Shown: positions 232 to 63,500 of the stretch, in pieces
How positions within the stretch are numbered: the stretch's first letter is position 1
How the letters are laid out: every line of letters begins with the position of its first letter
From: an uncultured delta proteobacterium
Lineage (GTDB): Bacteria > Desulfobacterota > Desulfobacteria > Desulfobacterales > B30-G6
NCBI GenBank assembly: GCA_963823335.1
Contig: CAWGLD010000006.1
Coordinates: 128,314 to 192,313, forward strand
Length of the DNA stretch: 64,000 bases
Direction: 5' to 3'
The notes under the pieces: model-generated
Told to the model about the DNA's origin: nothing
The model's input: the letters and a program-made list of their open reading frames with translations, nothing else
Database searches by the model: none
Position numbers and translations under genes: made by a program

Positions 232-268
232 GGTGTTTGTGTTTGTGTTTGGTATTTTGTGTTTGGTG
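232..268. repeat. W5 solo G/T arm (GGTGTTTGTGTTTGG words)
   Basis: 37 nt with no C, built of GTGTTTG/GTATTTT words. It matches the arms at 14246. Confidence 0.6.
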
Positions 269-300
269 CAGGCGTTTGATTACTTGCAAAACACGAAACA

Positions 301-723
301 CTATTTATTTTCAAACCCTTCCCACTTGTCGTCAATCAGTTCGAGCAGTACACCATTCATTTTGTCCGGGTGGATAAAGGCAAATTCACAATCACGGAAG
401 GAACGGGCACCACCGACAAATGGATATGACCTGGGTTCAAGTTCGTCTATGGCCTCCCGGGTGTTGTCGACATTCAGGCTGATCAGCATAATGCCTTCCC
501 CTCTTTTTTCGATGAACTTCGCCACCTCTCCATCGGGGGATGTCGATTCCATCAGCTCAAACCCGACATTGCCAAGCCAGTAACGGGCCACACGTATTTT
601 CTCAGGCTCGTCTACGTAGGCATCATCGGGTTTATCCTTGCCCAGCACCGGCTCCCAAATTTTTCTGGCCGATTCCAGATTCCTGACAGCAATACAGATG
701 TGATCAATTTTGTTGATTTTCAT
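301..723 (-). CDS. methylmalonyl-CoA epimerase / VOC (glyoxalase-fold) family protein
   Basis: 140 aa. The N-terminus KIDHICIAVRNLE and the later GIMLISLNVDN / FAFIHP strands fit the tandem VOC module of small epimerases. It sits between two acyl-CoA ligase genes. Confidence 0.65.
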   Translation of the reverse strand: MKINKIDHICIAVRNLESARKIWEPVLGKDKPDDAYVDEPEKIRVARYWLGNVGFELMESTSPDGEVAKFIEKRGEGIMLISLNVDNTREAIDELEPRSYPFVGGARSFRDCEFAFIHPDKMNGVLLELIDDKWEGFENK

Positions 724-1068
724 AGGTGCCCCCTGTCTTCTTGATTAGAACCTATCTCAAAAATGTCTTTTATCCCAATCTCTGTTTGCATTAAGATGAT
801 GCACTGTACCCCAACCTTAAAAAGCAAGTCAAGTTAGAAGGCTGCGCACCACAGGACGTGTCATCAAATTGGTCTTTCCAGCTTGACATTCACCGGGTTA
901 TCTGTGAGTTATATAGCCTGTATCAAATGTACATTTTCAGATGGATCAATTCCTACAAACCTTATATTCCTGAAGCCAATTTTCTTAAAACATGAAACAG
1001 GCACTTTTAAGTGTCACTATTTCCAATCCGTCATATTATTAACCTGGCAACTAAATAGCTCACAATGC

Positions 1069-1152
1069 GTCATGCCGGACTCGATCCGGCATCCAGTGCC
1101 TTTCTGGATAGCGCTAAAGCTTCACTTCATGCCCCGCCTGCGCGGGAATGAC
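1069..1152. repeat. REP-like palindromic element pair (GTCATGCCGGACTCGATCCGGCAT and CCCGCCTGCGCGGGAATGAC)
   Basis: Two short hairpins. The second is related to the copy at 15838-15864 (GTCATTCCCGCCAAGACGGGAAT). The spurious ORF 883-1215 reads through it (..PRLRGND..). Confidence 0.6.
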
Positions 1153-1241
1153 AGCCTTAACACATTCAATTGCCGGAGTAACACGATCACTGGTGTTCGC
1201 TATACAATCTTCTAACCTACTGAACAGGGAGGGCGTTTACC

Positions 1242-2945
1242 ATGTACGAAGATAGATTCTGGAAAAAAAATTGGGATGAAGGTGTTGATGATTTAGATCC
1301 AAATCTGTTTGAAACGACTTTTGTCACTATTATCGAAAAAGCGTTTCAAGATGTTCCGGATAAAACAGCCATGGGGTTTTTAGGCATCGATATAACTTTC
1401 AGTAAATTGAATGATTATGCCAATCAATTTGCCAACATGCTGATGCTAAATGGTTTCAAAAAAGGGGATGTGGTTGGGATCAACCTGCCAAATATTCCCC
1501 AGTATGTTATCAGCGTTATCGGAACCTTACGGGCGGGTTGCATCGTATCCGGGGTTTCACCACTTCTCTCTGCAGAACAGATCAAGTATCAGCTCAATGA
1601 TCTTGGAAGCACAGGCAAAAAAGTCGCCCTTGTCACCCTCGATGCGATCTTTGCTGGTCATCTTGTAAAAATTGCATCCGACATACCCCAGTTGAAGCTC
1701 GTTGTTGCAACGAGTGTTGCGAGTTTCCTTCCAAAAATCAAACAGTTCATGGGAAAACTTCTAAAAAAAATCCCCAGCGGCAAAGTCACACCGTTGCCTG
1801 GAATCACCGTTCTGGACTACCACAAAGATGTCTTTGCCAGATATAACACCAGGTCGGTTTCCGTCGACTTGACACCGGATGATCTGGGATGGATTCAATA
1901 TACGGGTGGCACAACCGGTGATCCCAAAGGTGCCATGCTGACCCATAGAAACGGGTGTCACAACATTATGAGCATCGCTGCCTGGCTGGGCTGGGCTCGC
2001 AATGAGGGTGTTCTGCTTTCTGGCTTTCCTTTTTTCCATATAGCCGGGCTGACCGTTTGCGAGAGCGCCATCTATATGGGTTGGACACAGGTGCTGATCC
2101 CCAATCCTCGGGACACGGACCACATTTGCAATGAAATGCTGAAATACCACCCTACCAATATGGCCAATGTTCCCTCCCTTTATCAGATGCTGATCGAAAA
2201 CCCAAAATTCCAGGAAATGGACCATGCCAGTCTCGGAACGTGTATTTCTGCGGCAGCCCCCTTTCCAAAGGAGTCTCAAGTAGTTCTGGAGAATATCATC
2301 GGAAAGGGAAAGCTACTGGAACTTTACGGAATGACGGAGACATCACCGGTGTCTACCATGAACCCCTCCAGAGGAAAAAAGAAGCTTGGAACGGTAGGTA
2401 TGCCGTTTTTGAATACGCAAATCAAACTTGTGGACCCGGCTTCGGGGGAAAACGTTCCTCCAGGCGAGCCGGGTGAGGTATGTGTCAAGGGTCCTCTGGT
2501 CATGAAAGGGTATTTCAACAAACCCGAAGCCACGGCCCAGGCTATCGATGCTGATGGATACATGCACACCGGCGATGTGGGTATTATGGACGAAGAAGGT
2601 TACATCAAGATTGTTGACAGAACAAAGGACATGATTATCGTGGGAGGGTTCAAAGTTTTCTCCAGCAAAGTGGAAGACATACTGGCTCAACACCCAGCTA
2701 TTTCCGTACTGGCCCTGATAGGTGTCGAAAACCCCGATCGTCCTGGTTCAGAAATAGTGAAAGCCTATATTCAGTTGACACCTGAAGCCACAAAGGATAC
2801 TGGCGAGGACGCTCTGAAAGAAGACATCATCGAATTTGCCAAGGATAAGTGTTCACCCTATGAAGTTCCCAAGATTATCGAATTCATGGATGAAATACCC
2901 CTGACGGCAGTTGGCAAAATCGATAAGAAGGTGCTGAGGAAATAA
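1242..2945 (+). CDS. AMP-forming acyl-CoA synthetase (FadD-like)
   Basis: 567 aa. AMP-binding signature YTGGTTGDPKGAMLTH and the hinge motif GDVGIMDEEGYIKIVDRTKDMII are present. Confidence 0.85.
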   Translation: MYEDRFWKKNWDEGVDDLDPNLFETTFVTIIEKAFQDVPDKTAMGFLGIDITFSKLNDYANQFANMLMLNGFKKGDVVGINLPNIPQYVISVIGTLRAGCIVSGVSPLLSAEQIKYQLNDLGSTGKKVALVTLDAIFAGHLVKIASDIPQLKLVVATSVASFLPKIKQFMGKLLKKIPSGKVTPLPGITVLDYHKDVFARYNTRSVSVDLTPDDLGWIQYTGGTTGDPKGAMLTHRNGCHNIMSIAAWLGWARNEGVLLSGFPFFHIAGLTVCESAIYMGWTQVLIPNPRDTDHICNEMLKYHPTNMANVPSLYQMLIENPKFQEMDHASLGTCISAAAPFPKESQVVLENIIGKGKLLELYGMTETSPVSTMNPSRGKKKLGTVGMPFLNTQIKLVDPASGENVPPGEPGEVCVKGPLVMKGYFNKPEATAQAIDADGYMHTGDVGIMDEEGYIKIVDRTKDMIIVGGFKVFSSKVEDILAQHPAISVLALIGVENPDRPGSEIVKAYIQLTPEATKDTGEDALKEDIIEFAKDKCSPYEVPKIIEFMDEIPLTAVGKIDKKVLRK

Positions 2946-2950
2946 GGAAA

Positions 2951-2989
2951 GGGTTCGAGGATTCGAGGGGCCAAGGGATCGAGGGGTTG
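2951..2989. repeat. W1 G-rich arm
   Basis: GGGTTCGAGGATTCGAGGGGCCAAGGGATCGAGGGGTTG, starting 5 nt after the TAA of the 1242-2945 gene. Confidence 0.7.
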
Positions 2990-3006
2990 TTTTACCGATG
3001 GAGAAA

Positions 3007-3148
3007 GAATGAACATCCAACGTCCAACGTCCAACATCGAATTTTGAACCGCAACAGCGAGCGCATTCCCCGTAGCTTGTTGCGAGGTTCCTCAATGTTT
3101 CTTTTAATTCGACGTTGGGTGTTTAATGTTTGTTGTTCGACGTTCATC
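3007..3148. repeat. W2 hairpin element with a T13-derived hairpin in its loop
   Basis: The left arm is GAATGAACATCCAACGTCCAACGTCCAACATCGAA. The right arm is TTCGACGTTGGGTGTTTAATGTTTGTTGTTCGACGTTCATC. The loop carries GAACCGCAACAGCGAGCGCATTCCCCGTAGCTTGTTGCGAGGTTCCTCAAT. Confidence 0.75.
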
Positions 3149-11415: not shown

Positions 11416-11428
11416 CGATAAATATGAT

Positions 11429-11526
11429 AGGAAGCCTGGAAGCCATGAGGCTGGGAAGCCGCCTTCAGTGATTGGCTGAAAGCCGATACCAGTCTCATAG
11501 CATCCTCGCTTCTCAGCATCACAGCC
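11429..11526. repeat. W12 element (GGAAGCC words ... AGCATCCTCGCTTCTCAGCAT)
   Basis: The left side is the word array GGAAGCCTGGAAGCCATGAGGCTGGGAAGCC. The loop carries the core-like GGCTGAAAGCCGATACCAG. The right arm recurs at 18069 and 63441. Confidence 0.6.
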
Positions 11527-11569
11527 CATCCTTCATTCACCTTTAAACCCATCCGTACCCGTCAATGGC

Positions 11570-12235
11570 TTATGGTGTTACACCAAATCTGAGCCATTTA
11601 AATCTCTTCTGATTATCGATCGACACATATTTTCCAGTACGTGCCATAAATAGATTTTCCGGCTTAAGGCATATATTCGGTTCGTTGGTCTGAAGTTCTT
11701 GAAAGCCAAAAGGATCAAATAATCTGATGAGTATTTTTCGATAAGCCAGTGCAGATTTTGCTGTACCATCCAGATCCCATGTCCAAGAGTACCCCACCAT
11801 ATACACGATCAGTTTCTCCACAATTGAGGGGCGCATCAGCTGCCCCAGGATTCTACCTGCAATCCCGTGGGACCGAAACCGACGGCATATTTCTATGGCT
11901 TTTACCTCCATCATCAATCCGGGCGTCATTTCTTGCCAGCGGTCCCCTTCGTCTGGGGGGCTGAGAACACCAAAACCGATGATATTCTCACCTTCCAATG
12001 CTAAGGTAACATTCGCATTGGCTTGTGATGTATTGTTTTCAAGACTTTCTCTTTTGGTGTAAAGAGACTTGTATTGCGCATGCATGCCAAACTGTCTGTC
12101 AAACGTATAGCGTCGTATCTCTTCCGGTTTGCAGAAAGAGCGGATGCAGATCTTAGGGTTGGAGGGGGTAAGCGCAGGGTTGGAGGGTTGGAGGGGTCGA
12201 GGGTTCGAGGGGGTGTCTTTTGTAGAATATACCAT
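11570..12235 (-). CDS. GNAT acetyltransferase, AcuA-like (start uncertain)
   Basis: 221 aa. YSWTWDLDGTAKSALAYRK and NLFMARTGK resemble recalled B. subtilis AcuA blocks (YYWHWDLKG, NCLMARIGK). The first ~25 codons (PSNPRPLQPSNPALTPSNP) translate a W1 repeat arm, so the true start may be downstream (for example Met at 12085). Confidence 0.6.
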   Translation of the reverse strand: MVYSTKDTPSNPRPLQPSNPALTPSNPKICIRSFCKPEEIRRYTFDRQFGMHAQYKSLYTKRESLENNTSQANANVTLALEGENIIGFGVLSPPDEGDRWQEMTPGLMMEVKAIEICRRFRSHGIAGRILGQLMRPSIVEKLIVYMVGYSWTWDLDGTAKSALAYRKILIRLFDPFGFQELQTNEPNICLKPENLFMARTGKYVSIDNQKRFKWLRFGVTP

Positions 12236-12338
12236 GCAATGATAGCCTTTTAGGGAGTTAGACTGTAGGCTGTTAGGTGCGTATAGCTAAAAGCTCTCAG
12301 CCACCCTCGAACCCTCGAAACCTTGGACCCTCGAACCC
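12153..12338. repeat. W1 hairpin element (full, ~186 bp) with W6-type core
   Basis: The G-rich arm is 12153-12213 and the C-rich arm is 12301-12338 (CCACCCTCGAACCCTCGAAACCTTGGACCCTCGAACCC). The loop contains TTAGACTGTAGGCTGTTAGGTGC, shared with 27540 and 42620. Confidence 0.8.
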
Positions 12339-12343
12339 TTGTT

Positions 12344-12898: not shown

Positions 12899-12970
12899 CG
12901 CTCGGACACCTCCCTTTTATTGTCAATTAATGACAGATTTCATGCCTTTTGCGACAAACAAATAAATGCA

Positions 12971-13071
12971 ATCACGAAAACACGCACGAAGTATCCTTAA
13001 CGGATAAATCTGAAAAACACGAAATTTTTCATGGTCTTTTTCGTGTTTTCGTACTTTCGTGTTTTCGTGAT
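12971..13071. repeat. W3 element (CACGAAAA words), ~100 nt
   Basis: The outer 14-bp stem pairs ATCACGAAAACACG with CGTGTTTTCGTGAT. Inner stems are present. Near-identical reverse-complement copy at 18586-18670 and a shorter copy at 45105-45185. Confidence 0.8.
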
Positions 13072-13081
13072 AAAAGATCGT

Positions 13082-14215: not shown

Positions 14216-14245
14216 GATATTCTCCTTTGTATAAATAATTGATTT

Positions 14246-14378
14246 TTTGTTTTTGTGTTTTGTATTTTGTGTTTGGTGCTCAGTGTTTGGTGCCTGGAGA
14301 TGTTATTGGGTGGTTCTATTTGACGGTAGACCAAACACCAAGGACTAATTACTAAACACCAAATACCAAACACTAAAT
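14246..14378. repeat. W5 hairpin element between oah and had
   Basis: The G/T arm is TTGTTTTTGTGTTTTGTATTTTGTGTTTGGTGCTCAGTGTTTGGTG. The C/A arm is ACCAAACACCAAGGACTAATTACTAAACACCAAATACCAAACACTAAAT. Confidence 0.8.
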
Positions 14379-14389
14379 ATGATCTCAAT

Positions 14390-16662: not shown

Positions 16663-16703
16663 ATAAAATCGTTGCACGATTTTATCTGGCGCGACTTCGT
16701 CGC
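16663..16703. repeat. W8 bipartite hairpin
   Basis: ATAAAATCG-TTGCA-CGATTTTAT, then CTGGC, then GCGAC-TTC-GTCGC, starting 3 nt after the fabG-like stop. Copies are at 34596, 38598 (reverse complement), 54003 and 20680 (reverse complement). Confidence 0.75.
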
Positions 16704-16783
16704 TTTAAGAAGGTACCGTTCTTCAATTTGTTTGGCGTTTCGATAGTCGAATTTAAAGTTTATCAACAGAGGAGAATCTACGT

Positions 16784-17950: not shown

Positions 17951-18006
17951 TTTATATATCATATCAGATTCTTAACAATATCAGATTTGTCAATAATCTT
18001 GTAAAT

Positions 18007-18103
18007 GGGTTCGAGGGATCAAGGATTCAAGGGTTCAAGTGTGGCTGAGGGCTAAAAGCAGACAGCGGCATCCAGGCCTTCAAGCATCCTCGCTTCCCAG
18101 CAT
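18007..18103. repeat. chimeric element: W1-type G arm + core + W12 right arm
   Basis: GGGTTCGAGGGATCAAGGATTCAAGGGTTCAAG, then GTGGCTGAGGGCTAAAAGCAGACAGCGG, then CATCCAGGCCTTCAAGCATCCTCGCTTCCCAGCAT. The two arms belong to different word families. Confidence 0.65.
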
Positions 18104-18116
18104 ACATGGAGGTAAC

Positions 18117-18585: not shown

Positions 18586-18670
18586 ACACGAAATCACGAA
18601 AAAGACCGTGAACAATTTCGTGTTTTTCAGATTTATCCTTTACGGATACTTCGTGCGTGTTTTCGTGATT
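18586..18670. repeat. W3 element, reverse-complement copy
   Basis: CACGAAAAAGACCGTGAACAATTTCGTGTTTTTCAGATTTATCCTTTACGGATACTTCGTGCGTGTTTTCGTGATT aligns nearly base-for-base with the reverse complement of 12971-13071. Confidence 0.8.
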
Positions 18671-18756
18671 GTTTTCTATTACTGTTGCCAGAAAATCATT
18701 TTTTTCAGTTGTGTGACTAAAACAGTATAAAACCATCAAACCCAAGGATTTTAAAC

Positions 18757-19548: not shown

Positions 19549-19773
19549 ATGAAGATGACTCGCGAACAAATACTCAAAAACGAAGGCTGGACAAAACAAT
19601 CCTCCCACGATGAACCCCGCCTGTCCGATATTGTAGAAATGTACGAAGAGATCGGGCTAGAAGTTCTTCTTGAGCCCTTTAACCCGGATGAAGAACCCGG
19701 ATGTACAGATTGCATGCGGGGGTCCGCCCGTAATTACAAGACGATTTACACACGTGATAAACTCAGAATTTAG
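19549..19773 (+). CDS. hypothetical small protein
   Basis: 74 aa ORF tightly spaced after the hydratase gene. It contains a CTDC motif. No family recognised. Confidence 0.4.
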   Translation: MKMTREQILKNEGWTKQSSHDEPRLSDIVEMYEEIGLEVLLEPFNPDEEPGCTDCMRGSARNYKTIYTRDKLRI

Positions 19774-19854
19774 GGGTGGAGGTTTGAAGGGTTGACTGAA
19801 AGCCATCAGCGTTTAGTCACCCTCCACCCCTTCAAACCTCCGACCCTCAAACCC
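19773..19854. repeat. W1 compact hairpin element
   Basis: GGGGTGGAGGTTTGAAGGGTTGAC, loop TGAAAGCCATCAGCGTTTAG, then TCACCCTCCACCCCTTCAAACCTCCGACCCTCAAACCC. It begins on the last base of the TAG stop at 19771-19773. Confidence 0.85.
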
Positions 19855-19879
19855 ATTTCTGTATACCGGGAGCAACACA

Positions 19880-20494
19880 ATGAACTCAATAAACACAAAG
19901 AACCCAAAAAACGCCGCAGCTGAATCTCCCGCCCTTCTCATTATCGACATGGTTAAAGACAACTTCAAGAAAGAAAGAAACCTTCCCATCACACCTCTGG
20001 CGATAAAAACCATCGATCCTTTGAATCAGATCATCCGTTTTTTCCGTTCCCATGCATGGCCGGTTGTTTTTTCAACAGACGCATTCAATAAAAACGACTT
20101 TATCTTTACCGGTAGAATGCTGCCCCATTCGCTGGCCGGAACCGAAGGTGCAGAAGTGGTTGACGCGCTGGATTTTCAGGATACAGATACCTGGCTCCCC
20201 AAACCGCGGTTTTCAGCATTTTTCAAAACCGGACTCGAGAAGATGTTACATGATCGGGGAATTACACTTTGCGCGGTCGCTGGTATCGCCACACCCTTTT
20301 GTGTACTGACAACTGCCATGGATGCCCTGTGCCATGACTTCAAGGCCGTCATTCTAGAAAACTGCTCTACGGCATTTTCAGATGACTTGCACCAGCAAAC
20401 GCTGAGCCTCTATCGGCGCAATCCCCTTTATCCCCTCTTTCGTATCATGACATCCTCTGAACTGATGAATGAACTCAGCCCTGGCATTTCATAG
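19880..20494 (+). CDS. isochorismatase-family cysteine hydrolase
   Basis: 204 aa. ALLIIDMVKDNF and the catalytic Cys context GIATPFCVLTTAMDA are present. Confidence 0.8.
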   Translation: MNSINTKNPKNAAAESPALLIIDMVKDNFKKERNLPITPLAIKTIDPLNQIIRFFRSHAWPVVFSTDAFNKNDFIFTGRMLPHSLAGTEGAEVVDALDFQDTDTWLPKPRFSAFFKTGLEKMLHDRGITLCAVAGIATPFCVLTTAMDALCHDFKAVILENCSTAFSDDLHQQTLSLYRRNPLYPLFRIMTSSELMNELSPGIS

Positions 20495-42686: not shown

Positions 42687-42689
42687 TTC

Positions 42690-43466
42690 ATGCATACAGA
42701 CAACGTCATCCAACACATCGTAAAAGAGTTGAACGCCTATTGTGACAAAGCAGGGTTAAAGGGATTTGTGGTCGGGGTTTCCGGCGGGATCGACTCTGCC
42801 GTCACATCCACACTCAGCGCCAAAACAGGCAGGAAAACCATTGCCCTCAACATGCCTATCCTTCAGGCAAAAAGCCAGGACTCGCTTTCATCCAGTCATA
42901 TTGCCTGGCTTGAAAAAGCTTACCCGAACGTACAGGGAATCCGCGTCGATCTTTCCGAGGCGTTCCTGACTCTATGCAGGACCCTCCCCTCCGATATCCA
43001 GGATGAACTCAGCATGGCCAACACGCGTTCACGACTGCGCATGCTGACCCTGTATGCCTATGCAACCCACTACCGGTTTTTGGTAGTGGGCACCGGCAAC
43101 AAGGTTGAAGATTTCGGGGTGGGGTTTTTTACAAAATACGGCGACGGTGGCGTGGACATTTCACCTATTGCAGATCTTTTAAAATCAGAGGTCTTTTTAC
43201 TAGGTCAAACCCTTGGTGTCATCGAGGACATCATTCATGCCGCTCCCACGGACGGCCTATGGGAAGACAACCGGACCGATGAAAGCCAGATCGGTGCGAG
43301 CTATGCCGAACTGGAATGGGCCATGGCAGCGGCGACCCAGGAGAATACGGACAGCTTCACAGCACGTCAAAAAGAAGTGCTGTCGATTTATCGCCGTTTT
43401 CACGCCCGGAACCGGCATAAAATGGATCCGATACCGGTGATAAAGATACCGGAGAAATTTCGCTGA
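42690..43466 (+). CDS. nadE: NH3-dependent NAD+ synthetase
   Basis: 258 aa. The PP-loop SGGIDSAV and GTGNKVEDFGVGFFTKYGDGG are present. Confidence 0.9.
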   Translation: MHTDNVIQHIVKELNAYCDKAGLKGFVVGVSGGIDSAVTSTLSAKTGRKTIALNMPILQAKSQDSLSSSHIAWLEKAYPNVQGIRVDLSEAFLTLCRTLPSDIQDELSMANTRSRLRMLTLYAYATHYRFLVVGTGNKVEDFGVGFFTKYGDGGVDISPIADLLKSEVFLLGQTLGVIEDIIHAAPTDGLWEDNRTDESQIGASYAELEWAMAAATQENTDSFTARQKEVLSIYRRFHARNRHKMDPIPVIKIPEKFR

Positions 43467-43503
43467 AGTGAAGTTCAATTGAGAGAGTGCTTATGGTTAA
43501 CCG

Positions 43504-43804
43504 TTTTTTATTTTCGCCACAGACTCACACAGACAATCTTCGGCCGACATAGCCGAAGATCAATCTCAATGCCCTTCGGGCATTAAATTTTTGCTTATTT
43601 TATCAAAAACCGCTTCGCAACTTATTTGAGTAAATCTAATTTATGTAAATTTTTTTTGAAAATAAGAGATCATACCTCGCGATAGCCATAATTGGTTATC
43701 TTCGATCAAGTCGATCGAAGATAAAAATAAAATGTCTGTGATTGTCTGCGTACCCCTCAAGGGGGTATTAAACAGAATGTGTCTGCGGCTACATAAAAAG
43801 GATC
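43504..43804. mobile_element. W4 MITE-like element with long terminal inverted repeats
   Basis: The left end is TTTTTTATTTTCGCCACAGACTCACACAGACAATC. The right end is ATGTCTGTGATTGTCTGCG..GTGTCTGCGGCTACATAAAAAGGATC. Internal hairpins are CTTCGGCC-GACAT-AGCCGAAG, ATGCCC-TTCG-GGCAT and ATCTTCGATC-AAGTC-GATCGAAGAT. Confidence 0.7.
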
Positions 43805-43816
43805 TACACCGTTCAC

Positions 43817-43910
43817 GAAACACCAAATACAAAACACCAAACACTAGACCCAACGAACGCAACAAACCCAACAAACTCAATGAACGCAACAAACCCAATA
43901 AACATAACTG
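43817..43910. repeat. solo C/A arms: W5 followed by W7
   Basis: GAAACACCAAATACAAAACACCAAACACTA followed by GACCCAACGAACGCAACAAACCCAACAAACTCAATGAACGCAACAAACCCAATAAAC. It contains the ATG used by the GNAT gene at 43880. Confidence 0.7.
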
Positions 43911-44377
43911 GCTATACCCCCGGCGCCATCGGTCGTATAACCGAACTTCATGGCAGGTATTACAATCAATCGTGGGGGTTTGGACCGTTCTTCGAGGCCA
44001 AAGTGGCCACCGAGTTATCCGAATTCATCGGCCGATTCGATGACCAGAAGGATGGCTTCTGGACGGCCTGCCTCGACAACCGCGTTCAGGGTTCAATTGT
44101 CATTGATGCTAAAAACGCCGATTCAGAAGGAGTCCATTTACGATGGTATATCGTTTCAGAAAGTCTTCACGGTCAAGGCATCGGTGGTCTTCTTCTATCA
44201 GTGGCCATGCACTTTTGCCGTGAGCGGCACTATAAACAGGTGTTTCTCTGGACATTCAAGGGTCTCGATCCTGCCAGACATCTGTATGATAAAAATGGGT
44301 TCAAGTTGGTACATGAGCAACAAGGATCTCAGTGGGGCACAACCGTCAAAGAACAGAAATATATCTGTGAGCTCTGA
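43880..44377 (+). CDS. GNAT family N-acetyltransferase
   Basis: 165 aa. LHGQGIGGLLLSVAMHF is present. The start codon and first codons (MNATNPIN) lie in a W7 C/A arm. Confidence 0.7.
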   Translation: MNATNPINITGYTPGAIGRITELHGRYYNQSWGFGPFFEAKVATELSEFIGRFDDQKDGFWTACLDNRVQGSIVIDAKNADSEGVHLRWYIVSESLHGQGIGGLLLSVAMHFCRERHYKQVFLWTFKGLDPARHLYDKNGFKLVHEQQGSQWGTTVKEQKYICEL

Positions 44378-45104: not shown

Positions 45105-45185
45105 AATCACGAAAACACGAAAATTTAAAAACACGAAAATCTTCATGGTCTATTTCGTGGTTTCGTACTTTCGTGATTTCGTGAT
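45105..45185. repeat. W3 element, short copy
   Basis: AATCACGAAAACACGAAAATTTAAAAACACGAAAATCTTCATGGTCTATTTCGTGGTTTCGTACTTTCGTGATTTCGTGAT. It matches 12971-13071 minus an internal ~30-nt hairpin. Confidence 0.75.
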
Positions 45186-48162: not shown

Positions 48163-48238
48163 GTTAATTCCCCGCAGCTTGCTGCGATAAGATTGGTATA
48201 ATCTATTTTTAGCTACCTCGTGGCTTGCCGCGAGGTAG
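48163..48238. repeat. T13-related hairpins
   Basis: ATTCCCCGCAGCTTGCTGCG followed by CTACCTCGTGGCTTGCCGCGAGGTAG. Same hairpin design as T13, with different stem bases. Confidence 0.5.
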
Positions 48239-48289
48239 TTCATTCCTTGACTTTTCGGATCTTTGGAACCTGTTTGAAGTCACTTCTAT

Positions 48290-49045: not shown

Positions 49046-49052
49046 GAAAGAG

Positions 49053-49266
49053 CAATTTTGAATTATGAATTTTGATTATGAATTAGATAGCTGATGACTG
49101 ATAGCTCATAGGTTATAGGCAAGCGCTAGCATGCTGGATGCATTGTCAAAAACTCATCGTCGATCAAGTCGATCGATGATTGTCAGTGTGTGTCTGTGGC
49201 TAAATAAAAAAGATTTACACCTTTAGCGAAACACCAAACACTAAACACAAAATACCAAACACAAAT
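49053..49266. repeat. composite of W10 (reverse), W6, W4 right end and W5 C/A arm
   Basis: CAATTTTGAATTATGAATTTTGATTATGAATT; AGATAGCTGATGACTGATAGCTCATAGG; TCATCGTCGATC-AAGTC-GATCGATGATTGTCAGTGTGTGTCTGTGGCTAAATAAAAAAGAT; GAAACACCAAACACTAAACACAAAATACCAAACAC. Confidence 0.7.
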
Positions 49267-51992: not shown

Positions 51993-52973
51993 TTGGACTT
52001 AGTTGAAAGTTACGCCGAAGAACTGAAGCTCATCCGCAAAACCGGCACCAAAGCCTGGGTGTTTGCAGTGGTAATTGCCATATTTCTTTTGCCCCTCTAT
52101 GCGCCCGAACACTTGGTATATGTGACCACGATCATCGCCATCTATGCCATCGGCATCATGGGGCAAAATCTCTTGATCGGGTACACCGGTCAGATCTCTT
52201 TTGCCCAGGCCGGGTTTTTCTGTATCGGGGCTTTTGCCTTCGGGCACTTGTATCGTGCCGGCATCCCATGGCCTGTGAGCGTTCTTGGGGCAGGTCTCAT
52301 CACCGGACTGGTGGGTATACCCGTCGGGATTCCTTCCTTGCGGCTGAAGGGCCCTTACCTCGCCATCGCCACCATGGGCTTCGGGATTGCCGTCTACCAG
52401 GTCTTTGTCAATTCTCCCCTCCTCTCAGGCGGCCGCATGGGACTCATGATAACCAAGCTTGAACCCATGTTCGGCCTCTCCAGGGTCAATACCTATTTCT
52501 ACATCAATCTGATCATCGCGGTTCTTTTCACCCTGATTGCCTACAACATCGTTTCTTCCTACATGGGCCGCGCATTCATCGCAATCCGTGACAATGACAT
52601 TGCCGCCGAAGTCCTCGGTGTAAACCTGTTACAGTACAAACTGTTGTCCTTTGCCATCAGTTCCTTTTACGTGGGGGTCCAGGGCGGTCTCTACGCCCTC
52701 TTTCTGGGCTACCTGGAACCGAACATGTTCACCTTCATGGAAACCATCACCTTCCTTGTAGCAGTCATTGTAGGGGGATTGGCATCCGTGGAAGGCGCCA
52801 TCATGGGGGCGGCTTTTGTGATACTCGTTCCCCATTTTTTCAGTGATCTGAAAGAATTTATACCGGTCATCTATGGTGTGGTCATTATCGTCATCCTCAT
52901 CTTCGAGCCGGGCGGTATCGCCGGCCGCTGGATGAAGATAAGGCTCTATTTCCGTAACTGGCCATTCAGATAG
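51993..52973 (+). CDS. livM: branched-chain-amino-acid-type ABC permease (LivM-like)
   Basis: 326 aa polytopic membrane protein. GYTGQISFAQAGFF is typical of LivM. The start is TTG and uncertain. Confidence 0.8.
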   Translation: MDLVESYAEELKLIRKTGTKAWVFAVVIAIFLLPLYAPEHLVYVTTIIAIYAIGIMGQNLLIGYTGQISFAQAGFFCIGAFAFGHLYRAGIPWPVSVLGAGLITGLVGIPVGIPSLRLKGPYLAIATMGFGIAVYQVFVNSPLLSGGRMGLMITKLEPMFGLSRVNTYFYINLIIAVLFTLIAYNIVSSYMGRAFIAIRDNDIAAEVLGVNLLQYKLLSFAISSFYVGVQGGLYALFLGYLEPNMFTFMETITFLVAVIVGGLASVEGAIMGAAFVILVPHFFSDLKEFIPVIYGVVIIVILIFEPGGIAGRWMKIRLYFRNWPFR

Positions 52974-52976
52974 TTA

Positions 52977-53102
52977 GATGAGTTTATTGGGTTCGTTGAG
53001 TTCGTTGGGTTGGTTGACAGTTATCGGGCTCCCTAATTTCCTGTCCGCCTGTTTACAGTTAACAACTCAATGAACACAATAAACACAACAAGCTCAAGAA
53101 AC
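52977..53102. repeat. W7 hairpin element without ORF, between livM and livH
   Basis: The G/T arm is GATGAGTTTATTGGGTTCGTTGAGTTCGTTGGGTTGGTTGAC. The loop is 39 nt. The C/A arm is GTTAACAACTCAATGAACACAATAAACACAACAAGCTCAAGAAAC. Confidence 0.8.
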
Positions 53103-53115
53103 AAAGAAGGTTAAT

Positions 53116-54002: not shown

Positions 54003-54043
54003 ATAAATTCGTATTGCGAATTTATCATACGCGACGCTGTCGC
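54003..54043. repeat. W8 bipartite hairpin
   Basis: ATAAATTCG-TATTG-CGAATTTAT, then CATAC, then GCGAC-GCT-GTCGC, starting 3 nt after the livH stop. Confidence 0.75.
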
Positions 54044-54188
54044 TCTACGCTTCGCTTGATTTGGGATAAAAACGTTTCTTACGTTTAAACCATGATCAGC
54101 GATTAATTACGCGCGCAGCGCAAATGTCGCCCGTAGGGCTAATGACATACCGGCAGAGCCACAACTCTTTTTTTATGGAGATAATCGT

Positions 54189-55473: not shown

Positions 55474-56011
55474 GGGTTATTGAGTTTGTTGGGTTTATTG
55501 AGTTCGTTGGGTTCGTTGCGTTTATTATTTGGGTGCAGTAAATGCCGATTAGAAGGTTTGAAGATATTGATGCATGGAAAGAGGCCAGAAAACTTGTTAT
55601 TTTGGTCTATCAGGCGATTGATTCCAATGATTTTTTCAGAAAAGATTACAGACTTGTCAATCAAATTCAAGGTGCGGCAGTTTCTGCAATGTCAAATATT
55701 GCAGAGGGTTTTTCAAGAAGAAGCAACAAAGAATTCATCCAGTTTCTTTTTATTTCGAAAAGTTCAGCTGCAGAGGTTCAAAGTCAACTATACGTCGCCC
55801 TCGACCAGAAATATATCGACAATGAAACATTTAATAAACTTTATTCACAAGCCGAAACAGTTTCAAGACTTACTTCCGGCTTCATCAAATACCTAAGATC
55901 TCAACTCAACAAACCAAGGCAACCAGGTTAACTCAATGGCACTCCCATATGCCCCAGAGCATTCAACAACTCGACGAACTCAATAAACCCAACGAACCCA
56001 ACGAACACGAC
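55474..56011 (+). mobile_element. IVS-like element: W7 inverted-repeat arms enclosing an intact four-helix-bundle gene
   Basis: The left G/T arm is 55474-55533. The right C/A arm is 55964-56011 (CAACAACTCGACGAACTCAATAAACCCAACGAACCCAACGAACACGAC). The ORF 55542-55931 lies in the loop. Confidence 0.7.
55542..55931 (+). CDS. four-helix-bundle protein (23S rRNA intervening-sequence protein / S23p family, Avd-related)
   Basis: 129 aa. FEDIDAWKEARKLVILVY, QIQGAAVSAMSNIAEGFSRRSNKEFIQFL and ISKSSAAEVQSQL are the family hallmarks as I recall them. The gene lies in the loop of a W7 inverted repeat. Confidence 0.8.
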   Translation: MPIRRFEDIDAWKEARKLVILVYQAIDSNDFFRKDYRLVNQIQGAAVSAMSNIAEGFSRRSNKEFIQFLFISKSSAAEVQSQLYVALDQKYIDNETFNKLYSQAETVSRLTSGFIKYLRSQLNKPRQPG

Positions 56012-56085
56012 AATCCTCTCTTGAAAATCATTCAAAACAGTTTATAGTTAGAATATCATTATCCAATTTAATTTGGGGGTATCGT

Positions 56086-56629: not shown

Positions 56630-56947
56630 GAGTGAACATCGAACGTCCAACATCGAACATCGAATTTTGAACCGCAACAGCGTGCGCATTCCCGTAGGTT
56701 CTGCCGCACGGCAGAACATTCCTCGTAGCTTGCTGCGAGGTTCTTCAATTTAAAAAGAAGAAGAAACAGGCAAATCGTTGAAGGGCTTCCAAATATCAGA
56801 GCAAGTAAACATGTTGTGGCCAATTGTTAAGATTGAAAGCGTTGCCATACCCAAGGCATCAAACAAATTGAAAAGAAACAGATATAATTCGATATTGATA
56901 TTTGTTTTCATTCGATGTTGGACGTTGGACGTTCGATGTTCGACGTT
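56630..56947. repeat. W2 hairpin element (318 bp) with T13 variant in loop
   Basis: The left arm is GAGTGAACATCGAACGTCCAACATCGAACATCGAATTTTG. T13 lies at 56668-56749. The right arm is TTCATTCGATGTTGGACGTTGGACGTTCGATGTTCGACGTT. Confidence 0.75.
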
Positions 56948-59383: not shown

Positions 59384-59472
59384 CATTGGAATGCTGAACG
59401 ACCGGAATATTGGAATGATGGAAGGTTGGAATAGCGTTACACACTTAGACCAACCCAACATTCCATTATTCC
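59384..59472. repeat. W9 hairpin element (GGAATRWT words)
   Basis: CATTGGAATGCTGAACGACCGGAATATTGGAATGATGGAAGGTTGGAATAGC, a loop, then CCAACCCAACATTCCATTATTCC. Confidence 0.65.
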
Positions 59473-59481
59473 TTTCAAGTA

Positions 59482-60282
59482 ATGGAATTCAACATGAACG
59501 AAAAAGAACAATTCCCAAAAAATGATTCCTTCTTTCAAGAACTGTCCGTAGAGTTCCTCATTCACGAGCTCAAAGATCCCATTGCGGTGATCGAAACAGG
59601 TGCACGTACCCTGCTTGAAAAACAGGACAAATTCGGATCCCTGTCATCTCGCCAAGAAAAGACCATGAGCCGGATCATACGTAATGCCGGCAAGGCACGG
59701 GAAATGTTGTACAGCCTGCTGGAGGTGGGACGATCCGAAGCCGGCAGCTTTGCCTGTGATCAGTTTAAACCCGTAGAAACGACTTTTGACGTGCTGGCAA
59801 ACTGCCTGGAAGTGCATGACCCTTCTATTACCGATGAAATGCACCAGAATCCGGACATGGCTCAAGTTTTGACCACTCTCATTTCATACGGTATTTCAGT
59901 ATCTTCTGAACCGGACCTGCTTCAGATGGACATGCATCAGGATCAGGTTAAGTATCGCCAAATTGTCGGGAATCTTGTAAAAAATGCCCTGCATTTCCGG
60001 CGTGAACGCATTGACATCAAAATGGAAAAACACAAAGGCTGCCTGATGGTTACAGTGACGGATGACGGCCCAGGTGTTGAGCCTGAGCAGTGTGAATCTA
60101 TTTTTCAGCGCTATTCTCAAGCAAATGATTGTACTATTACCCAGCGCCAGGGACACGGTTTGGGACTGGCCGGTGCCCGTATCATGGCTCGCTGTTTGGG
60201 TGGTGATATTGAACTGACATGCAGCAAAACCGAAGGCACAAGATTTCAATTGACACTGCCGATAAACTTTACAACGATGTAA
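59482..60282 (+). CDS. histidine kinase without recognisable sensor domain
   Basis: 266 aa. The H-box is IHELKDPIAVI. The HATPase region has DDGPGV and GHGLGLAGARI. Confidence 0.8.
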   Translation: MEFNMNEKEQFPKNDSFFQELSVEFLIHELKDPIAVIETGARTLLEKQDKFGSLSSRQEKTMSRIIRNAGKAREMLYSLLEVGRSEAGSFACDQFKPVETTFDVLANCLEVHDPSITDEMHQNPDMAQVLTTLISYGISVSSEPDLLQMDMHQDQVKYRQIVGNLVKNALHFRRERIDIKMEKHKGCLMVTVTDDGPGVEPEQCESIFQRYSQANDCTITQRQGHGLGLAGARIMARCLGGDIELTCSKTEGTRFQLTLPINFTTM

Positions 60283-60912: not shown

Positions 60913-61244
60913 GATCTTTTTTATTAGCCACAGACACACACAGACCTACACAGACAACCATCGATCGACTTGATCGATGAATACCTATCAATGCCCTGCG
61001 GGCATACTCAAGTATTCCGAGGAGTTGAAGCAAGGGACCAACACAGAAATTGGGCTAAAAAACTTTTTTGAGATAGCTTCTATTCTTTGTCTTAGAAAAT
61101 ATGATGGATTTGTTCGGCCAAGTCGGCCAAACAAATGTCTGTGTTCGTCTGCGAGTGTCTGCGGTAAATAAATAAAACACCTTTCAACTCGTAAACTGTA
61201 ACAACCGTCCGTGCAAGTCCGTGTGTGTCTGTGGCAAAATATAA
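60913..61244. mobile_element. W4 MITE-like element
   Basis: The left TIR is GATCTTTTTTATTAGCCACAGACACACACAGAC. The right end is GTCCGTGTGTGTCTGTGGCAAAATATAATT. Internal hairpins are CATCGATC-GACTT-GATCGATG, ATGCCC-TGCG-GGCAT and TTTGTTCGGCC-AAGTC-GGCCAAACAAA. Confidence 0.7.
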
Positions 61245-62090
61245 TTAAAAACCGTCAGCTAAGAGCATCTTGTCTGCAAGCTCCTTCAACAGTTTCGCCG
61301 CCACCATGGCTGTCATACCATTGATATCTCGCAAGGGATTATACTCCACAATATCCGCGCCTACGATGGGCGCTTTGATCTGCTGAATTACCGAAATGAT
61401 ATCCCGCGTTCTCAAACCACCCGGTTCAAGATGCGATACCCCCGGGGCATAGGCCGGGTCCAGTGCGTCCAGATCGAGAGAGATATAGACCGGCCCGTTA
61501 AGTTTAAGTCTGGAAAGACCTTTTGGCCATGATTTCATATCGATAACCGTAACATTGAACCGATCGGCCTGCTCTTGCAGGTGGGGCGTCATGGTTCGGA
61601 TGCCCACCTGCACCAATTTATGTATGAGCCCCTCTTCCATGATCCGGGCAAACGGGCAGGCATGTGAATATCGATTCCCTTGGAATTCGTCGTAAAGATC
61701 CGGGTGCGCATCAAATTGCAGAATATTCAGATGCGGAAAATGCTTTTCGTAGGCTCGAATAATAGGCAGCGTCACGGCATGGTCTCCCCCCAGAGACAGG
61801 ACCCTTGCCTGGTTATCGAGTAGTTCCTGATAAACATGCTCGATGTGTCCCAGTACATTCATGCTCTTTTTCAGCTCCAGATCGCCCACATCGAAGAAAC
61901 TTTTTTGTTTGACCAGATCAAGCCCACTCTCCGTACATTTATTGGTGGCATCAGAGTTAAATGCTTCCCTGATTTTAGGGGGAGCTTTGGCCGGTCCCTT
62001 CATAAACGAAGAGTTTTCGTCGTAAGGAACCCCTACAACCGCCACGGATTTTCTATCAAGCTTGTTGTCTATTATGTCATTTAAATTCAT
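61245..62090 (-). CDS. speB: agmatinase / ureohydrolase family
   Basis: 281 aa. Mn-binding motifs GGDHAVT, DAHPD and SLDLDALDPAYAPG are present. Confidence 0.85.
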   Translation of the reverse strand: MNLNDIIDNKLDRKSVAVVGVPYDENSSFMKGPAKAPPKIREAFNSDATNKCTESGLDLVKQKSFFDVGDLELKKSMNVLGHIEHVYQELLDNQARVLSLGGDHAVTLPIIRAYEKHFPHLNILQFDAHPDLYDEFQGNRYSHACPFARIMEEGLIHKLVQVGIRTMTPHLQEQADRFNVTVIDMKSWPKGLSRLKLNGPVYISLDLDALDPAYAPGVSHLEPGGLRTRDIISVIQQIKAPIVGADIVEYNPLRDINGMTAMVAAKLLKELADKMLLADGF

Positions 62091-62139
62091 ATTGTTATAT
62101 CTTTATATTAACAATTAAGAACTCATAATTGCCCATATT

Positions 62140-63222
62140 TCATTTTTCTGTTTTCCCCCCGAACATCGCCTCCATCTTCAGCACCAGTTCAAACTCCCCC
62201 TCAACCGTATATTTCTCCTGAAAGAACATCGCCTGGCCATCGGCCTTGCCGGTCATGATGTCCATCCACACGTCAAATGGTGTTTTGATGGTAACAGATG
62301 GGGTGGCATGCTTGCCCATTTCCGCCCCTATCAACCCGTTTTCAATCGAAATAAAACAATCACCCTGCACGGAACCACTGAAACAGAACTGCATGATGGC
62401 CTGTATATCTCTTGCCCCTTCAGGGTTGAACCCCAGTTTGAGGATGGCCATATAACTCTCCAGGGAATCGGGTCTCGGGATCATGCCTTTTTTTTCAAAT
62501 TCTTTGGGGGTCACCCCCTCTGCGATGCAGGTCTTCCAGAAGAGGTTTATCAGCCCCTTGAACGAACCAGATTCACTAGAGATCGGCTGCTGAATCTGGG
62601 CCATTGTGTTTTCGGATACCGATTTGCTCTCTACAATTTCCCGACCGGCCTCCTTTACCGCTTCAGCAATACGGGTTTTGATGTCTTCCGTTCCGGGGTT
62701 CAGCATACTTTCTGCCCCGGGTCGATAAATCTCCGCGAGAAGCCTGTTTTTATACAAATAGCTAATATACTGTGATAATTGATCAAAAACCCCAAGTTCT
62801 GAGAACCCGGCCACGGATATGCAGACCACATCCGGGTGCTGGTACCTAAGAGGGTGACTCGACCGGCCATCCTCTCGCTTGATCACAAAAGGCTCGAGAA
62901 TGGGCAGGGTCCTTTCAATAAAGGCTTTTAACTGTGCGTTAATTGTAAAGTGATATAGCGGTGTTGCATAGACCACCAGATCCGCCGCTATAAATTTTGG
63001 AAATAGCTCTGCACTCATGTCATCCTTGTGAATGCATTGACCCGGTGTTTTTGTCCAGCAGGTAAAGCAGCCGATGCAATAGTTGATTTTCTTTTTGCGC
63101 AGGTCGACCTTTTCCACGGTTGCCCCGGCAGCTTGCATACCCGACACCAGATGATCGAGCATCCATTCCGTCTTGCTCTGTCCCCCGCCCCGCGGACTCG
63201 AATTCAGCGCTAAAACTTTCAT
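62140..63222 (-). CDS. iron-sulfur flavoprotein-like (flavodoxin-fold FMN reductase) fused to a C-terminal SCP2 domain
   Basis: 360 aa. The N-terminus is MKVLALNSSPR, with the compact Cys motif CIGCFTCWTKTPGQC. The C-terminal ~100 aa match the SCP2 pattern (TIKTPFDVWMDIMTGKADGQAMFFQEKYTVEGEFELVLKMEAMFGG). Confidence 0.7.
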   Translation of the reverse strand: MKVLALNSSPRGGGQSKTEWMLDHLVSGMQAAGATVEKVDLRKKKINYCIGCFTCWTKTPGQCIHKDDMSAELFPKFIAADLVVYATPLYHFTINAQLKAFIERTLPILEPFVIKREDGRSSHPLRYQHPDVVCISVAGFSELGVFDQLSQYISYLYKNRLLAEIYRPGAESMLNPGTEDIKTRIAEAVKEAGREIVESKSVSENTMAQIQQPISSESGSFKGLINLFWKTCIAEGVTPKEFEKKGMIPRPDSLESYMAILKLGFNPEGARDIQAIMQFCFSGSVQGDCFISIENGLIGAEMGKHATPSVTIKTPFDVWMDIMTGKADGQAMFFQEKYTVEGEFELVLKMEAMFGGKTEK

Positions 63223-63257
63223 GTGTAGGTCCCTTTTTAGACAGTAGAGGTTTAAAA

Positions 63258-63440
63258 GATCTTTTATTTAGCCACGGACACACACAGACAATCACAGACA
63301 TTTCTCTCTTTCGACTTGAAAGAGAGAAAAAATGCATTCACTTCGTGTCAGTATGATATGCCCAAAGGGCATTGAGATTGATCTTCGACCATGTCGGTCG
63401 AAGATTGTCTATGTGTGTCCGTGGCTAAAATAGAAATAAA
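63258..63440. mobile_element. W4 MITE-like element, compact copy
   Basis: The left end is GATCTTTTATTTAGCCACGGACACACACAGACAATC. The right end is GATTGTCTATGTGTGTCCGTGGCTAAAATAGAAATAAA. Internal hairpins are TTTCTCTCTTTC-GACTT-GAAAGAGAGAAA, ATGCCC-AAAG-GGCAT and CTTCGACC-ATGTC-GGTCGAAG. Confidence 0.75.
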
Positions 63441-63500
63441 CGGATGACGGATAGCAGCCTCCAAACATACCAGCTTCCCAGCATCAACCAGCCGTCTCGC
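63441..63500. repeat. W12-type arm
   Basis: GCAGCCTCCAAACATACCAGCTTCCCAGCATCAACCAGCC, related to 11493-11526 and 18069-18103. Confidence 0.5.

Follow-up and report, generated by a model that had tools for sequence, protein, structure and literature searches.

Intergenic tandem repeats of short words have been on record in cyanobacteria since 1990 and in Xanthomonas and Beggiatoaceae since 2015, with neither origin nor function assigned. The short tandemly repeated repetitive (STRR) sequences of heterocystous cyanobacteria are reportedly heptamers, described by Mazel and colleagues in 1990. The 23S rRNA intervening sequences of Leptospira carry an S23p open reading frame (ORF), and mobile insertion cassettes hold passenger genes between transposon ends and are mobilised in trans. 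The large PF05635 family has, to our knowledge, a single characterised member, Avd, an accessory protein of diversity-generating retroelements. Here we analyse hairpin elements with tandem-word arms in a 64-kb stretch of an uncultured member of the Desulfobacterales (contig CAWGLD010000006.1; hereafter the window) and compare them with metagenome and plasmid stretches, the L-numbered loci (L001 etc.). These hairpins probably represent the termini and degraded relics of a superfamily of small mobile cassettes that are non-autonomous and whose complete members carry a PF05635 gene for a four-helix-bundle protein.

The elements of the window resemble STRR sequences in that arrays of short words are dispersed between genes, several families coexist in one genome, inverted pairs are frequent and close relatives differ; in the cyanobacterial plasmid loci inspected, the arrays also flank the same gene family. 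They differ in their host, which belongs to the Desulfobacterales and not to the cyanobacteria, and in their periods of 7, 8 and 9, whereas STRR arrays have period 7 only. The STRR units CCCCAGT, TTGGTCA and CAACAGT have no match in the window at up to one mismatch, and no paper in the STRR literature searched mentions a cargo gene. STRR sequences are cited in passages of PMC4692102 and PMC2408588. The heptamers GGGAATC of Xanthomonas and GGGGAYT of Nostoc were described by Rehm et al. (2015; PMC4692102), with 70–75 convergent inverted pairs per Xanthomonas genome. These are likewise G-rich intergenic arrays with patterns that vary between close relatives, but the Xanthomonas repeats form a single word family read as a G-quadruplex motif, and were connected with neither a gene cassette nor mobility (PMC4692102). 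TAACTGA direct repeats occur in marine Beggiatoaceae, cyanobacteria and Bacteroidetes (MacGregor, 2015; PMC4679880). They too form intergenic heptamer arrays that end just before start codons and have a patchy phylogenetic distribution; in contrast to the arrays described here, they consist of essentially one word, are almost always direct (one inverted case) and are reported with no mention of four-helix-bundle genes (PMC4679880). As candidate words of the window, the known heptamers STRR1-3, TAACTGA, GGGAATC and GGGGATT were all rejected by their absence.

Three other kinds of element invite comparison as well. Repetitive extragenic palindromic (REP) elements and REPINs, mobilised by RAYT transposases, are single 20–40-nt palindromes with a conserved GTAG or CGTC head (PMC3116915, PMC3733652). 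They are also abundant intergenic hairpins that occur singly or in inverted pairs within operons, but they neither contain tandem words nor enclose a gene, whereas the arms described here are built of tandem words that differ by family, and no RAYT gene was seen. The 23S rRNA intervening sequence of Coxiella, which contains an S23p ORF, was described as selfish with a decaying ORF (Warrier et al., 2016; PMC4990558). In both systems a PF05635 ORF lies within a long stem of flanking inverted sequence (here 55542–55931 inside W7 arms); the intervening sequence is located inside 23S rRNA helices and excised by RNase III, whereas the present elements lie between protein-coding genes. With MITEs (miniature inverted-repeat transposable elements) and mobile insertion cassettes, the elements share terminal inverted repeats, target-site duplication in one family, the lack of a transposase, internal-deletion derivatives and a small passenger gene. 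They differ in carrying tandem degenerate-word arrays inside the termini, and target duplications were found in one family (23104–23537) only.

A four-helix-bundle gene between tandem-word arms

One cassette of the window is complete. Its left W7 arm is composed of 9-nt words (TTGGGTTCG), and the enclosed ORF is intact and matches PF05635 (E 6e-32) and TIGR02436 (four helix bundle protein; E 2e-31). The closest solved structure is PDB 2GSC (Xanthomonas XCC0516; E 6e-13). The protein has more than 3,500 homologues, which differ in length in 3-aa steps because the 9-nt words encode the tail (...NKPNEPNEP...). A dN/dS of about 0.13 shows that the gene is functional and under purifying selection. 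A phage origin was rejected, no close relative of the gene having been found in viral contigs. A protein 76% identical to that of the window, P0056, is annotated in a metagenome-assembled genome (MAG) of a Methanosarcinales archaeon, as a result of either horizontal transfer or a binning error.

The cassette is placed between a major facilitator superfamily (MFS) transporter gene and an ACT-domain gene, with branched-chain amino-acid permease and sensor kinase genes also in the neighbourhood. It is missing from the orthologous gap of L002 and L003; L002 retains the left W7 arm, and lone arms thus originate by partial replacement. Decayed copies of the gene also lie between arms. One remnant, at L001 6746–6856, is enclosed in a W7 hairpin (E 2e-13), and another, at window 23295–23486, corresponds to the C-terminal part of the gene profile (E 3.9e-4) within a AAGGATTC hairpin. 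A frameshifted copy at L002 2204–2520 (PF05635 E 2.6e-7) lies between GACTATTAGGCTGTTAG and CCTAACAGCCTAAC arms (GGCTGTTAG-type), and a truncated copy in L172 lies between AATTTTG and AATTCAA arms.

L172 (38% G+C), from the sample series of L001, represents a different low-GC organism with word families of its own, including 10-nt words (ACACAGATTT / AATCTGTGTA), and holds two four-helix-bundle genes within 8 kb. A small PDDEXK_3 (GxxExxY) gene at L172 11564–11962 lies between genes of an operon, is flanked by an inverted repeat with the A/C-rich arm first (CCACGGATGAACACAAATAGACAC / GTGTTTATTTGTGTCCATTTGCGG), and may be a second kind of small cargo with similar ends. As the cargo of the window families that begin with an A/C-rich arm, this gene was rejected, no remnant being present in the window or its close relatives.

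The association extends beyond the window. Scanning of metagenomes gave 80 loci in which homologues have 51–80% identity, 67 of them with usable flanks. At 66 of these 67, an array of period 6–10 was present in the gene flank, with clear inverted arms at 34, and the words change as the gene diverges, comprising several different 9-mers, 8-mers and 7-mers. Array density is 4.07 per kb within 250 nt of the gene compared with 0.64 per kb elsewhere on the same contigs (6.3-fold). Downstream of the gene, C-rich arrays number 39 and G-rich arrays 2 (p = 8e-10). The gene is located within operons and is co-oriented with 54 of 59 upstream neighbours. Flanking genes are shared in just 56 of 2,080 pairs of cassette loci; the cassettes occupy unrelated genomic contexts.

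In tblastn searches against plasmids, matches were obtained in cyanobacteria and Riemerella only. At all 12 plasmid loci inspected (Nostoc, Calothrix, Anabaena, Aulosira, Pseudanabaena, Stanieria, Picosynechococcus and Riemerella), arrays abut the gene, mostly in inverted orientation, as in Nostoc punctiforme, where GGGTGTGGGGTGTGGGGTGTAG precedes the gene and CCCACACCCTACACCCTACACCC follows it. The Riemerella record contains no comparable array in the remaining 100 kb around the gene. According to a supplementary table in Rehm et al. (2015; PMC4692102), the start of XCC0516 is the site of GGGAATC repeat no. 15. The arrangement of gene and array in cyanobacteria, Riemerella and this one Xanthomonas case ties their unexplained heptamer repeats to one gene family; no paper in the literature searched joins the PF05635 gene family to STRR or heptamer repeats. 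Within the cyanobacterial plasmids (L168, L169, L175; Anabaena 90, Pseudanabaena, Picosynechococcus), some cassettes are found in CRISPR-cas operons (cas6/cas4; cas10/cmr3) and others between ribonucleotide reductase genes.

Periodicity, composition and pairing of the arms

Tandem Repeats Finder (TRF) detected 41 merged arrays of period 7–9 with at least 2.5 copies in the window, compared with 0.8 ± 0.9 in dinucleotide-preserving shuffles (n = 30). The word periodicity proposed in the initial annotation of this DNA therefore holds against a compositional null. Most arrays are intergenic (34 of 41), and the 9,980 nt of intergenic DNA contain 31 arrays where 0.33 are expected. By period, the TRF rows number 24 (period 8), 15 (period 7) and 8 (period 9). 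The annotation had also recognised at least twelve families with one architecture and differing words; this pattern extends from the window to its relatives and to unrelated phyla, and the positions listed for W1 to W12 agree with the sequence. Its statement that most of the larger gaps contain such elements was too strong in degree: arrays are present, in a share that is a little over half of the gaps of at least 80 nt (23 of 41).

The compositional bias of the arms is chiefly keto/amino (G+T versus A+C; mean 0.40 versus 0.25 in random-word arrays, p = 3e-12). The absolute GC skew is weaker (0.52 versus 0.43, p = 7e-5), and the purine/pyrimidine and A+T/G+C biases of the arms are at the null level set by random-word arrays. 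The fraction of C is 0.03–0.14 in G-rich arms and that of G is 0.00–0.18 in A/C-rich arms, so that their earlier description as nearly C-free and nearly G-free was roughly right.

An inverted-repeat search returned 97 inverted pairs up to 600 nt apart, with arms of 24–49 nt and complementarity of 73–96%. A stricter Smith-Waterman test (z ≥ 5 against shuffled flanks) retained 11 array hairpins in the window and 40 when close relatives were included, in which 84% of the pairs are Watson-Crick. Arm complementarity is thus confirmed against shuffled controls, with about half of all arrays being lone, that is, having no inverted partner. In RNA folding, eight hairpins gave z values of -3.5 to -5.9 and the W12 hairpin gave -3.0.

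Complementarity between arms is 0.83 in register, 0.69 when shifted by one word and 0.25 off period, and neighbouring words of one arm are identical at 0.73. The two arms carry their word variants in mirrored order, and the observed order beats word-order permutations in 26 of 31 informative hairpins (p = 2e-4). Register-tolerant pairing together with mirrored word order shows that the arms are decayed mirror copies that are still able to pair in several registers. Separate homogenisation of each arm would phase the mismatches with the period; such phasing is not a general feature, being present in 3 of 29 hairpins at p < 0.05 (combined p 0.31, Fisher). Selection on the fold of the sense-strand RNA was also rejected: among 998 paired positions in co-directional contexts, 40 G.U pairs stand against 41 A.C mismatches, which indicates that arm complementarity reflects copying at the DNA level. 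Copy numbers range from ~2.5 to 27, so no fixed number of words exists per arm and five words per arm, matching a pentameric protein, are ruled out. The annotation had described arms of different families as joined and, at 18007–18103, as paired; the arms are juxtaposed, but their pairing was not confirmed. As functional hairpins such chimeras were rejected because they fold no better than shuffles (18004–18106, z = -0.9; 42562–42690, z = -1.1; 49050–49199, z = -1.0). The A/C chain at 43800–43915 is unstructured (minimum free energy -3.6 kcal/mol). Slippage or conversion among the words, one of the processes that had been proposed, is plausible in view of the pairing in several registers, the mirrored word order and the gaps that are either identical or replaced in L001.

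Many arrays lie close to coding sequences. Among 52 arrays near a stop codon, 22 overlap it or begin no more than 12 nt away; among 54 near a predicted start codon, 26 end no more than 12 nt from it. On the sense strand, lone arrays are predominantly G-rich after a stop codon (14 versus 2) and C-rich before a start codon (18 versus 3; Fisher p = 1e-5), which is the polarity of the gene-bearing cassettes. Because a hairpin with the G-rich arm first is the same from either strand, this polarity fits relics of gene-bearing cassettes. Functional reasons could include the lack of start and stop codons in A/C words and the immediate pairing of a C-rich, G-poor arm that emerges second. The hairpins are not terminators, a role that had been raised initially: 26 terminator-like sites were present between 36.5 and 56.5 kb compared with 22.4 expected, none of them at a word-array hairpin, and U tails were absent. 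At Rfam gathering thresholds, no rRNA and no other RNA family was detected in the window.

We regard it as improbable that the arrays arose by local replication slippage and were kept by the host as RNA regulatory elements on which four-helix-bundle genes merely land. Arrays of this kind might act as platforms for S1/Csp/CsrA-type proteins, as unstructured A/C leaders that aid translation, or as mRNA-stabilising or -processing stems. Their position next to stop and start codons, their polarity along transcription and the structure-free A/C chains would fit such roles, as would the translational regulation proposed for TAACTGA repeats (MacGregor, 2015; PMC4679880) and the cassettes that look inserted into long direct arrays. 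However, the same words recur with conserved non-array interiors at many loci in several species, word order is mirrored between the arms, the equal G.U and A.C counts show no sign of selection on a sense-RNA fold, about half of the arrays have lost their partner and the chimeras no fold. Unrelated elements in orthologous gaps, the inverted termini and target duplications of one family, and the restriction of the Riemerella arrays to the gene also argue against a local origin.

Mobility, turnover and origin of the elements

Evidence of transposition comes from the family of the element at 23104–23537, whose outer termini resemble GGATCATCTCC. Inner inverted (AAGGATTC)n arrays are located at 23134–23170 and 23475–23511; the gene copy between them is internally deleted (MLKNYKEL followed by LETQTMISGDLDYM...SLENKHLNP), and another repeat interrupts the element at ~23249–23376. 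Copies with the same ends occur in other contexts, with 8-bp duplications that match at 8/8 positions in the window and L179, 7/8 in L182 and L183, and 6/8 in L184. Near-full-length versions in L186 and L187 have the same ends and 105-aa ORFs with a nonsense codon ahead, and ORF lengths in the family form a series of 105, 91, 60, 55 and 42 aa. The outer terminal inverted repeats and 8-bp target-site duplications mark this family as a MITE-like transposon. The distinction from ordinary MITE families that had been drawn initially finds no support, since this family has the two hallmarks and each window family also has conserved parts outside the arrays, with copies scattered in either orientation.

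In L180 (~1690–3074) and L186 (~1050–1718), the same junction (TTTCTCCCAACT joined to AACCCCCATGCC) precedes an IS110-family transposase gene in two different genomic contexts. In the mini four-helix-bundle element, the junction falls within the terminal hairpin on the right, which suggests that an IS110-family insertion sequence targets this hairpin. A transposase fragment is present downstream in L181 (~1690–2295) too, with a different junction sequence. The repeat that interrupts the element of the window is the second copy (23249–23376) of a 130-nt inverted repeat, the first being at 20900–21029. The two copies are 96–98% complementary, contain four short hairpins and bracket 2.2 kb with an indolepyruvate oxidoreductase alpha gene that is apparently split in two frames (21000–22445, 22376–23023). 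The bracketed segment could be an invertible segment or a composite element.

The arrays are restricted in distribution and change rapidly. The nearest genomes are MAGs of uncultured Desulfobacterales or 'delta proteobacterium', with 96–97% amino-acid identity in a 758-aa molybdoenzyme. Per 10 kb, the window has 6.4 arrays and the nine closest loci have 3–12, compared with 0–1 in nearly all of the other 70 loci that share one gene (Desulfosarcina, Desulfomonile, Syntrophobacter and others); among these loci the word-array trait is limited to one lineage of uncultured Desulfobacterales. Close relatives reuse the word families of the window, yet the elements in their orthologous gaps are quite different. 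Metagenome contig L001 is 99% identical to the window across 9 kb, and its gaps are either identical or wholly replaced: at window 43467–43855, where the window has a W4 element and a W5 array, L001 has a full W7 hairpin with the gene remnant, and the stretch 36820–36908 is heavily changed. Element content turns over completely between close relatives.

It is unlikely that the elements are unrelated, ordinary MITE- or REP-like families that were moved by different transposases and converged on one architecture, the gene being an occasional passenger of a few. W2, W3 and W4 would fit this alternative, because they have discrete conserved termini and interiors with no gene remnant, and their arm order, A/C-rich first, is opposite to that of gene-bearing cassettes; the confinement of target duplications to one family points the same way. 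Against it, arrays of period 7–9 occur in all families at ~50 times the chance level, the keto/amino split of the arms is common to the families, and the gene is linked to arrays in at least three phyla and the single Xanthomonas case, each time with different words. Such a recurring link makes chance capture hard to invoke.

A templated retro-process, in which a reverse transcriptase and an Avd-like protein renew the arms as in diversity-generating retroelements, is very improbable. Avd is a member of PF05635 or similar to it, a weak match to PF22296 (bAvd) is seen in some copies, and one arm differs strongly between the window and the 99%-identical strain. Conversely, the 30 window proteins scanned include no reverse transcriptase, nor do the contexts of L172–L174, and the only direct repeats in 52.5–58 kb are W7 words, leaving no template/variable pair near the gene. 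Arm mismatches are not adenine-specific, and viral contigs hold no close relative of the gene. The suggestion of a templated process in the initial annotation is therefore not borne out.

Common descent from PF05635 cassettes explains the shared design better than de novo diversification, and all twelve families may descend from such cassettes. A cassette would consist of a G/T-rich array of 3–8 degenerate 7–9-nt words, a PF05635 gene and a complementary A/C-rich array, with a short outer inverted terminus outside the arrays in at least one family. It would insert in intergenic spacers, mostly along the direction of the operon. The gene would afterwards be lost by internal deletion, one arm would be lost, or arms would be swapped by recombination between arrays, yielding hairpins without a gene, lone arrays and chimeras; the window would hold mostly such gene-less relics. 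The design is constant and the alphabet varies because different cargo-gene lineages carry different words. The arrays may serve as multi-copy binding sites (subterminal repeats) of a trans-acting protein, and co-transcribed stems may be RNase III substrates by analogy with 23S rRNA intervening sequences.

Several observations weigh against this cassette origin. An automated boundary search of 33 W7-type cassettes yielded no target-site duplication, the best 8-mer matches being equal to controls, and none of the 30 window proteins scanned is a transposase fitting the element termini. No cargo-bearing copy or gene remnant of W2, W3 or W4, the families with the A/C-rich arm first, was found in any sequence examined. 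Upstream arrays are C-rich in 13 of 43 cases, and some cassettes (e.g. L173) are bordered on both sides by directly oriented A/C-rich arrays; both features could mean that the gene inserts into pre-existing arrays. About half of the gaps in array-rich genomes have arrays anyway, so that adjacency to the gene is weak evidence alone in those genomes. The Xanthomonas link is a single row of a published table.

A broader proposal, which we put forward as a tentative and rather doubtful one, is that PF05635 proteins, which are pentameric, Avd-like and bind nucleic acids, act as the specific factor that binds the arrays of an unrecognised, widespread class of mobile cassettes. STRR, GGGAATC and Bacteroidota heptamers, ORF-bearing 23S rRNA intervening sequences and the Desulfobacterales hairpins would all be ends or relics of this class. 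A separate word would be recognised by each protein lineage, and this would also account for a constant design with a varying alphabet.

Elements of the window and their significance

The window (~47% G+C) is dense in genes, predominantly on the + strand. It encodes AMP-dependent ligases, indolepyruvate:ferredoxin oxidoreductase, a xanthine-dehydrogenase-type molybdoenzyme, a Liv-type ATP-binding cassette (ABC) transporter operon, multihaem cytochromes and sensor kinases, a content of everyday anaerobic catabolism and transport. The word-array elements are listed in Table 1.

Table 1. Word-array elements of the window, grouped by word family.
Feature	Coordinates	Strand	Remarks
Complete cassette	55474–56016	+	G/T-rich W7 arm 55474–55522, gene 55542–55931, A/C-rich W7' arm 55968–56016
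Four-helix-bundle gene, 129 aa	55542–55931	+	23S_rRNA_IVP / Avd-like; C-terminal tail towards A/C-rich arm
MITE-like element	23104–23537	+	Outer inverted termini GGATCATCTCCCAAAGAGTTG / CAACTGATTGGGAGAAGATCC; 8-bp duplication TGAAATAT at 23096–23103 and 23538–23545
W1 hairpin	12176–12339	.	(AGGGTTCG)n ... (CGAACCCT)n, conserved loop; inverted repeat
W1 hairpin	19769–19850	+	Inverted repeat; RNA fold z -5.9
W1 hairpin	40025–40241	+	Begins within stop codon; half W3 element nested at 40133–40156
Lone G-rich W1 array	2950–2985	+	4 nt past stop codon; TRF
Lone W1 array and conserved W1 loop module	27478–27572	+	Array is tail of ORF 26705–27523
Lone W1-type arrays	36721–36908	+	Strongly different from 99%-identical contig L001
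W1 array, W6-like module, W10 (AATTAAA)n	42565–42681	+	W1 over stop codon; W10 8 nt before next start codon
W2 hairpin	3005–3140	+	A/C-rich arm first, words GAACATC / GATGTTC; REP-like insert in loop
W2 hairpin	24214–24334	+	Fills entire gap, stop codon to predicted start codon; z -4.3
W2 hairpin	33040–33268	+	L003 retains left arm only
W2 hairpin	56634–56941	+	Arms 94% complementary, interior 244 nt; inverted repeat
W3 element	12957–13081	.	CACGAAAA / TTTTCGTG; 94% identity to inverted copy 18588–18671
W3 element	18586–18680	.	Opposite orientation to 12957–13081
W3 hairpin	45106–45185	+	Inverted repeat; z -5.4
W4 element	43504–43795	.	Long inverted termini TTTTATTTTCGCCACAGACTCACACAGACAATC / ...GTCTGCGGCTACATAAAAA; inner hairpins conserved
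W4 element(s)	60917–61238	.	Two inverted repeats
W4 element	63258–63432	.	Arms 96% complementary; inverted repeat
W5 hairpin	14245–14379	-	TTTTGTG/TTTGGTG ... ACCAAAC; z -5.1
Chain: W10 left arm, W6 module, W4 right end, lone W5 array	49054–49262	+	No fold as a whole
W6 hairpin	31319–31375	+	AGCTNNNAGC words; begins within stop codon; z -4.2
W7 hairpin without gene	52972–53103	+	Upstream stop codon to 12 nt short of next start codon; z -5.2
Lone A/C-rich W5 and W7 arrays	43814–43903	+	Enter predicted start codon
Lone W7-like A/C-rich array	19874–19912	+	Overlaps predicted start codon
W9 hairpin	59384–59482	+	TGGAATGA words; z -3.5
W11 hairpin	36950–37031	+	AATATCGAA words; inverted repeat
W12 hairpin	11425–11545	+	GGAAGCC / GCTTCCC words; z -3.0
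W1-like arm beside W12' arm	18007–18103	+	Chimeric juxtaposition; no stable hairpin, z -0.9

The L003 counterpart of the W1 hairpin that begins within a stop codon is shorter and lacks the nested W3 part. The W1 and W10 arrays at 42565–42681 are non-cognate and do not fold. W2 and W4 have long inverted ends, and copies of several window families are scattered in both orientations and share conserved interiors outside the arrays. A second W11 inverted repeat was recognised by eye in the gap 29006–29227. The W4 inner hairpin at 43568–43584 (AATGCCCTTCGGGCATT) is followed by T-rich sequence on both strands and is the sole terminator-like site associated with an element.

Two further repeat families accompany the arrays. 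A REP-like element of ~125 nt, composed of CCYCGCAGCAAGCTRCGRGG-type hairpins, occurs in both orientations in the window (27614–27738, 3040–3089, 56663–56750 and 48170–48250), in L002 (13390–13510) and in L003 (7240–7413 and 17168–17341). It is conserved in related species and frequently nested in the loops of W2 hairpins. A double-hairpin family (AATAAAATCGTTGCACGATTTTATC...GCGACTTCGTCGC) without tandem words is located directly after stop codons or ahead of genes at 16663–16710, 34596–34638, 38591–38638 and 54003–54046; similar motifs were seen by eye near 15620, 20700 and 38385.

The arrays bear on annotation, in which they generate false start codons and artificial N- and C-terminal tails. 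Three ORFs of the window start in W7 words (MNATNP.., MNPTNT.., MNSINT..; predicted starts 43880, 49273 and 19880) with no visible ribosome-binding site, and ORF 26705–27523 terminates in a W1 array; such ORF ends are probably mis-called starts or array-encoded tails. The arrays also matter for metagenome assembly, because most cassette copies are on contigs of 1–2 kb. The physical link between gene and array would give an experimental handle on both the short-word repeats and the PF05635 family.

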